Assembly (NCBI RefSeq): GCF_030013595.1
Contig: NZ_CP122768.1
Reading direction: 5' to 3' (one strand)
DNA: 64,000 nucleotides
Source of the DNA: Escherichia coli
GTDB taxonomy: Bacteria > Pseudomonadota > Gammaproteobacteria > Enterobacterales > Enterobacteriaceae
Positions 50,725-50,832 of this stretch are shown here, in pieces. The stretch's first letter is position 1, and the number at the start of each line of letters is the position of its first letter. A model generated the notes under the pieces. The model searched no databases and was not told the origin of the DNA. It saw nothing but the letters and a program-made list of their open reading frames with translations. The position numbers were made by a program, and so were the translations under genes.

Positions 50725-50832
50725 ATGACGCTCGCAGAGCTGGGCATGGCCTTCTGGCATGATTTAGCGGCTCCGATCATTGCTAGCATTCTTGCCAGTC
50801 TGATCGTGAACTCGCTGAATAAGCGGAAGTAA
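50725..50832 (+). CDS. Ldr-family type I toxin, divergent second copy
   Basis: 35 codons MTLAELGMAFWHDLAAPIIASILASLIVNSLNKRK; five substitutions relative to copy 1, including W30S. Confidence 0.75.
   Translation: MTLAELGMAFWHDLAAPIIASILASLIVNSLNKRK

Follow-up and report, generated by a model that had tools for sequence, protein, structure and literature searches.

Background

The closest described system is the LDR-D repeat of Escherichia coli K-12, whose LdrD/RdlD type I toxin-antitoxin pair was reportedly described by Kawano et al. in 2002. K-12 carries a single such unit, and its toxin chain is represented by NMR entry 5LBJ. Arrays of more than one unit are also on record: BL21 has a triplet, and the Rdl RNAs of all three BL21(DE3) pairs have been annotated from the transcriptome (PMC5435950). 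Two hallmarks mark the Fst/Ldr superfamily, namely a conserved tryptophan where the transmembrane helix gives way to the charged tail, and a P/D/S/T-XXX-G motif within the helix (PMC2887945, PMC7472228); in the peptides considered here, these are W30 and P17...G21. Like Ldr, Fst of pAD1 is a small toxin that spans the membrane and ends in a charged C-terminus; it has a valine at the position of the signature tryptophan, and keeps the PXXXG motif, of which both the P and the G are essential for toxicity in Fst (PMC7472228). It differs in its regulator, which is the 3'-overlapping RNA II and not an antisense RNA against the 5' UTR (PMC7472228, PMC2887945). A likeness in regulatory logic has been proposed for hok/sok (mok), in which the 5' UTR is likewise long and folded, a leader ORF is present (mok, with ldrX as its proposed counterpart), and the 5' tail of the antisense RNA is single-stranded (PMC4147584, PMC8167048), while the toxin families themselves are unrelated. 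A mutagenesis study of LdrD is still to be published and has been called for (PMC8309996).

Here we investigated a pair of ldr genes in a window of 64,000 nt from E. coli contig NZ_CP122768.1, to which all positions below refer. An earlier note, made from these letters alone, had described the second gene as encoding a divergent toxin, with five changes that could alter toxicity or membrane insertion, or indicate relaxed selection on one copy.

Results

The two ldr genes are flanked by yhjV (48495-49829, - strand) and bcsG (50919-52598, - strand), the interval that forms the LDR-D site and houses ldrD/rdlD in K-12. The array consists of two tandem LDR-D units with a period of 483 bp, placed by alignment at 50041-50433 (unit 1) and 50524-50916 (unit 2), each 393 nt long from TCGTAGAATCAGCG through the terminator. 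Unit 2 is 95% identical to unit 1 over these 393 nt, is collinear with K-12 LDR-D from end to end, and has the long-direct-repeat layout of leader, ORF, 3' UTR, and terminator; neither unit lacks any part of an ldr/rdl type I toxin-antitoxin module. With K-12, unit 2 shares the yhjV-bcsG locus, an identical Rdl stem-loop, the same terminator, and 30 of 35 peptide residues (86% identity to the LdrD chain of 5LBJ). It differs from K-12 in five residues (F3L, V18I, G21S, M26L, and W30S), at 6 of 18 nt in the Rdl 5' tail, and in being the second unit of a two-unit array.

A 981-bp stretch around both genes was found at 100% identity in strain HCP5S3_I2 (pig faeces, UK), and at 95% identity or more in nearly all of 5426 complete E. 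coli genomes. Although 5392 of the 5426 covered at least 80% of this query, we dropped that figure as a reading of copy number, given that a single unit aligns to both halves of the query, and the unit number per strain was counted at individual loci. One LDR-D unit was found in K-12, O157:H7, and ST648, two in the window and in APEC IMT5155, three in BL21(DE3), and four in O103:H2. An insertion-sequence rearrangement was observed at the LDR-D locus of E. coli 1344_LBHALD (L016, 1044-1908), where IS1 remnants abut the bcsG-side ldr gene and yiiX/metJ replaces yhjV upstream.

The toxin ORF of unit 2 (copy 2) runs from ATG to TAA at 50725-50832 (+ strand) and is translated as the 35-aa peptide MTLAELGMAFWHDLAAPIIASILASLIVNSLNKRK. 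That of unit 1 (copy 1), 483 bp upstream at 50242-50349 (+ strand), is translated as MTLAELGMAFWHDLAAPVIAGILASMIMNWLNKRK, catalogued as WP_001521561.1 and present on at least 1000 contigs of a public collection. Copy 1 carries M26, M28, and W30, and its description as a canonical Ldr peptide held up, at 33 of 35 residues identical to K-12 LdrD (F3L and V28M differ). All five residue differences named in the earlier note were recovered codon by codon. The two coding sequences differ at six nucleotides, of which five are non-synonymous (from copy 1 to copy 2, GTC>ATC for V18I, GGC>AGC for G21S, ATG>CTG for M26L, ATG>GTG for M28V, and TGG>TCG for W30S) and one is silent (AAC>AAT at N32). In both units the ldr frame is also open upstream of the annotated start (50152-50349 and 50635-50832, + strand), and in-frame ATG (MHLTTPRG...) and TTG (50182) starts sit within the Rdl-complementary region; public annotations include 55- and 65-aa versions of the gene.

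Copy 2 is already catalogued. Its peptide is RefSeq WP_109790531.1, named "type I toxin-antitoxin system toxin Ldr family protein", and UniRef A0A2X6HMK1, and record NZ_CM149870.1, which is 100% identical, annotates the gene as a CDS of the Ldr family. In a collection of 15 billion proteins the peptide was found on 99 contigs, and all 24 contigs that were read with it had the same yhjV-ldr-ldr-bcsG context. Since the identical peptide recurs on 99 contigs and the two-copy context is constant, a sequencing artefact is ruled out as the source of the copy 2 differences. Copy 2 is thus a catalogued, rare natural allele of the E. coli Ldr/Rdl repeat. Over 3.1 kb, three contigs carrying S21 were within 0-1 bases of the window, a closeness which indicates that the S21 carriers represent one recent clone.

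Exact-sequence look-ups placed copy 2 within a series of alleles. The form VIAG...LIVNS was found on at least 1000 contigs, IIAG...LIVNS on 419, and IIAS...LIVNS, the copy 2 form, on 99; the fourth combination, VIAS...LIVNS, was found on none. Among the 5426 complete genomes, the S30 codon context (counted as an exact 28-mer with TCG) occurred in at least 337 (~ 6%), in one place per genome, and the S30 allele was annotated as an intact CDS in 25 of 25 sampled carriers. The exact S21 allele was present in two complete genomes. A first tally of eight genomes at 99% identity or more was rejected as a count of copy 2 carriers, given that six of them hold the G21 precursor, one mismatch away, and two are exact. 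G21S also occurs on an M26/W30 background (7 contigs), where it has a separate origin.

Two catalogued alleles stand closest to copy 2. The common S30 allele WP_000170736.1 (ST648, S1-CAM-04-C, and SMS-3-5, the last as a 55-aa call) shares L26, V28, S30, and the AAT codon at position 32, and differs in having V18 and G21 and in its frequency, with at least 337 complete genomes against two; its haplotype is the direct ancestor of the copy 2 allele. WP_001560082.1 (I18/G21/L26/V28/S30; ST2747, MEI003, JNEC-KY178, and AF40) lies in the same array beside the same copy 1 allele, and its unit 2 differs at one base, a G at 50785 that gives Gly21. This allele is the immediate precursor of copy 2.

The direction of the five changes was read from the wider family. 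G21, V28, and W30 are found in the Ldr peptides of E. albertii, Citrobacter, and Salmonella and in E. coli LdrA/B/C, where position 26 is L or A and position 18 is V or I. Across 79 aligned family representatives, G21 was present in 72, V28 in 72, and W30 in 74. M26 was confined to LdrD of the E. coli/Shigella type, and I18 is the usual residue in LdrA/B/C as well as in the Ldr peptides of Citrobacter and Salmonella. The statement that copy 2 had diverged by five changes therefore needs dividing: the differences are real, and copy 2 holds the derived state at positions 18 (I), 21 (S), and 30 (S), but M26 and M28 are changes of copy 1, because the family and the outgroups have L26 and V28.

The three copy 2 changes also differ in age. 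We regard it as established from these allele comparisons that W30S (codon 30, TGG>TCG, at 50813, + strand), with which the signature tryptophan is lost, is an older polymorphism shared among E. coli and has no tie to a redundant second copy, since in ST648 the S30 allele is the sole ldr gene at the LDR-D locus. G21S (codon 21, GGC>AGC, a G>A change at 50785, + strand) alters the G of PXXXG and is the one recent mutation. In four close relatives (L006-L009), position 50785 is the single difference from unit 2 of the window; all four carry G there, and the I18+G21 form of the unit is matched exactly in them. Of the five differences, G21S alone is thus recent and private. In the same comparison, unit 1 had ~ 12 variable sites and unit 2 had one, which suggests that gene conversion or recombination acts mainly on unit 1 in the closest relatives of the window. 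The variable sites of unit 1 (50021-50256) include its -10-like box, with TAGAAT>TAAAAT at 50046 in ST2747.

To what extent these changes bear on the toxin was considered from its signature residues. Pfam PF13940 (Ldr_toxin) matched copy 2 along its whole length (residues 1-35 on model positions 1-35, 78.6 bits, E = 3.5e-22) and copy 1 at all 35 positions with 89.0 bits. No NCBIfam model scored above its cut-off for either the W30 or the S30 peptides; the W30 forms gave a sub-threshold match to the NCBIfam Fst model (14 bits, cut-off 26) and the S30 forms gave none, so that NCBIfam has no bearing on family membership. The basic NKRK tail is kept in copy 2, and the loss of the tryptophan in front of it, which the earlier note had reported, is borne out by a serine at position 30. 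The PXXXG motif reads P17-I-I-A-S21 in place of P-V-I-A-G. At position 21, only 3 of the 79 representatives have Ser, two of them Kluyvera peptides, and copy 2 is the only peptide in this set to lack both G21 and W30. Homologues were searched for with the copy 2 peptide extended by six natural upstream residues.

These observations are the ground for one alternative, that G21S on top of W30S abolishes or nearly abolishes toxicity and leaves a dead toxin gene in an intact RNA module, a form of early pseudogenisation invisible to an ORF check. Both superfamily hallmarks are gone, the Pfam score drops from copy 1 to copy 2, the weak Fst match disappears, and the independent G21S on the M26/W30 background would be expected if loss of function were harmless. 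By analogy with Fst, in which the P and G of the motif are essential, G21S could abolish activity (PMC2887945, PMC7472228). Weighing against this, serine is small and stands natively at position 21 in Ldr of Kluyvera intermedia and K. cryocrescens (PLMVS and PTLAS), and Fst is toxic without the tryptophan (PMC7472228). The tryptophan is accordingly a signature and not a requirement, since Fst-pAD1 has Val in its place, and the membership of copy 2 in the family by descent is unaffected. Klebsiella Ldr (...IVSRMDNRK) likewise has a residue other than Trp at position 30, namely Arg. Neither genus lacks both hallmarks, in that the Kluyvera peptides have WW at positions 30-31 and Klebsiella Ldr keeps G21, unlike copy 2 in each case; both are at ~ 40-60% identity to it. 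Decay was also absent from the ORF, the ribosome-binding region, Rdl, and the terminators, and unit 2 is the more conserved of the two units among close relatives. On balance, we think a disarmed toxin unlikely.

The transmembrane segment of copy 2, residues 14-31 (LAAPIIASILASLIVNSL), has a Kyte-Doolittle mean of 2.06. The Wimley-White octanol sum over these residues was -5.6 vs -6.4 kcal/mol, and the main cost, ~ 2 kcal/mol of interfacial anchoring by Wimley-White values, comes from the loss of W30. Because the segment stays hydrophobic, the peptide should still insert. It is plausible from these residues that the copy 2 changes affect toxicity or membrane insertion, as the earlier note had proposed.

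We then evaluated the RNA parts of unit 2. The start of the unit and the ldr 5' UTR up to the ATG occupy 50524-50724 (+ strand) by alignment with unit 1 and K-12 LDR-D. Opposite this 5' UTR, 49 nt upstream of the ATG, lies a 66-nt rdl antisense RNA with its terminator stem-loop (50611-50676, - strand), matched by Rfam RF01813 (rdlD) over model positions 1-66 with 81.7 bits against a gathering score of 50. Its fold has a predicted energy of -30.1 kcal/mol (z = -3.2) and the same stem-loop as the unit 1 Rdl, and a terminator-like site was found at 50633-50619. The unit 1 Rdl (50128-50193, - strand) scored 87 bits with RF01813, and its tail, GTCTAGAGTCAAGATTAG, is identical to the K-12 RdlD tail. 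The Rdl promoter boxes, read from the alignment as -35 TTGTAA, a 17-nt gap, and -10 TATTCT, are unchanged in unit 2. Downstream of the toxin ORF, the ldr 3' UTR and intrinsic terminator occupy 50833-50916 (+ strand), with a stem at 50882-50909 followed by TTTTCGT; the terminators of the two units are identical and the 3' UTRs differ at 1 of 84 nt. A predicted fold-back between leader and 3' UTR was set aside, as it had no covariation support in 20 distinct units.

The two units differ in the sequence that precedes them. The inter-unit spacer (50434-50523, + strand), which is the -35-side promoter context of unit 2, has no sequence kinship to the region upstream of unit 1 in the alignment, and a sigma-70 consensus scan gave no site above threshold in either unit. 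A second alternative, that the toxin mRNA of unit 2 is absent without the promoter context of unit 1 and that the peptide is free to drift, takes its case from these two observations. The scan is uninformative as a test of copy 2 transcription, however, as it is equally blank for the K-12-type context of unit 1, and transcription from the K-12 counterpart is known. A -10-like TAGAAT box also lies within the repeat and is unchanged in unit 2 (50527-50532). From this box, and from a distance of ~ 375 nt between start and terminator, we infer a transcription start for ldr unit 2 at about 50539-50541; the K-12 ldrD mRNA is reportedly ~ 370 nt long (Kawano 2002). An identical type of spacer precedes every non-first unit of the BL21(DE3), O103:H2, and APEC arrays, among them a unit that encodes the exact K-12 LdrD peptide together with the RdlD tail, and the ORF is intact on all of the contigs that carry copy 2. 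We therefore consider a silent unit 2 very unlikely.

The differences between the two units are concentrated in one place. A comparison of the rdl/ldr pairing region, which the earlier note had proposed, was run and found 9 of the 20 unit differences within a 25-nt patch (Fisher P = 4e-7). This hypervariable patch (50659-50683) comprises the first 18 nt of Rdl, its 5' tail, and the 7 nt between the Rdl -10 box and start; its counterpart in unit 1 is 50176-50200. Between the units, 6 of the 18 tail nucleotides differ and none of the 48 in the Rdl stem-loop. On the + strand, a hairpin is predicted in the ldr 5' UTR whose loop and 5' arm are made up by the patch; in the RNAalifold consensus of 20 distinct units its TCTTG/CAAGA stem is invariant and the variable bases fall in the loop, with no compensatory pairs. 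Eight Rdl tail types were seen among the 13 units of five arrays, while most of the ldr leader was invariant. That no array repeats a tail type was dropped as a finding, being non-significant in five arrays (rough chance ~ 0.2). Sib/Ibs pairs are known to be orthogonal, and by analogy the hypervariability of the Rdl tail might make tandem ldr/rdl pairs orthogonal as well.

The toxin types are not tied to these tails. The S30 haplotype (CTG26-TCG30-AAT32) was found paired with three different Rdl tails, at the first or the second unit position, and BL21(DE3) carries the spacer and the Rdl tail type of unit 2 of the window. Across E. coli strains, toxin ORFs and Rdl 5' tails thus reassort freely, as does the number of units (1-4).

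Whether selection has driven the two peptides apart was addressed with counts of differences. Comparing copy 1 with copy 2, five of the six coding differences are non-synonymous, a pN/pS of 1.47 (5 vs 1), and counts of this size do not separate relaxed, neutral, and diversifying regimes; the binomial probability of at least five of six under neutrality is 0.59. Divergence between the units is higher in the CDS than elsewhere, at 6 of 108 against 5 of 260 sites (P = 0.089). A BL21 unit, chosen for its matching Rdl tail and spacer type and taken as the counterpart of unit 2, has 7 of its 14 differences from unit 2 in the 108-nt CDS (7/108 vs 7/375, P = 0.02), of which 4 are non-synonymous and 3 synonymous.

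Such figures could be read as adaptive divergence, in which tandem toxins are selected to differ in oligomerisation, membrane target, or potency and form two non-redundant modules. The excess of non-synonymous changes, the more diverged CDS, and the strongly diversified Rdl tails, which would fit orthogonal modules, are in line with this. The ratio is nonetheless indistinguishable from neutrality, the BL21 comparison gives a near balance of 4 to 3, and the UTRs are structured RNA and not a neutral yardstick for CDS divergence. The CDS excess would be better explained by recombination of the older S30 haplotype into unit 2, since this haplotype is seen with three Rdl tails and at both unit positions. 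Adaptive divergence is accordingly given little credence here.

Other RNA elements were observed in the window. Rfam sok (RF01794) matched both ldr leaders below its gathering score of 59, at 50091-50244 (+ strand, 23.2 bits) and 50574-50727 (+ strand, 30.3 bits), and both matches reach to the ldr ATG. They hint at a resemblance in sequence or structure between ldr and hok/mok leaders, which would fit the ldrX/mok analogy. A strong match to the sok/hok leader (29902-30053, + strand, 124 bits) lies beside the cspA thermoregulator (30336-30763, - strand, 501 bits), and is probably the chromosomal hokA/sokA type I locus by cspA, a second type I toxin-antitoxin module in the window. A tRNA (41960-42033, + strand) is followed by a naRNA4/CssrE match (42130-42211, - strand), and an ES036/CssrF sRNA match was found at 11110-11152 (38.9 bits vs a threshold of 37.6).

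Discussion

With only moderate confidence, we favour the reading that copy 2 encodes a near-neutral to mildly weakened toxin within an intact module. As a best guess, its potency would be unchanged to moderately reduced, and a new activity is thought unlikely. By analogy with the K-12 ldrD/rdlD literature, unit 2 would give a stable ldr mRNA of ~ 375 nt, with a long folded 5' UTR, that encodes a 35-aa inner-membrane peptide. The 66-nt Rdl from the opposite strand would pair with this 5' UTR and block translation of the peptide, and RNase III would cut the ldr/Rdl duplex; all RNA parts that this scheme calls for are intact in unit 2. The peptide itself may be subject to drift, as constraint on chromosomal type I toxins present in several copies is typically weak.

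The allele probably arose by stepwise point mutation, from the older L26/V28/S30 allele, which already had W30S, through V18I to a very recent G21S in one clone. This path is suggested by the contig counts, which fall from at least 1000 to 419 to 99 along it, and by the absence of the VIAS form. As the elements of LDR-D reassort freely, a comparison of neighbouring copies inside one genome mixes old polymorphisms with recent mutations.

Conclusions

Taken alone, copy 2 matters little, being one allele of a chromosomal type I toxin that is well described; it is correctly named in RefSeq and confined to one clone. The series to which it belongs, from W30/G21 through S30/G21 (with or without I18) to S30/S21, alters exactly the two residues that define the superfamily. 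We consider it quite improbable that the S21/S30 peptide represents an Ldr disarmed or re-purposed in nature within a fully intact RNA module. If it were true, E. coli clones would hold graded Ldr potencies along W30/G21, S30/G21, and S30/S21, and would offer a natural mutagenesis set for this toxin.
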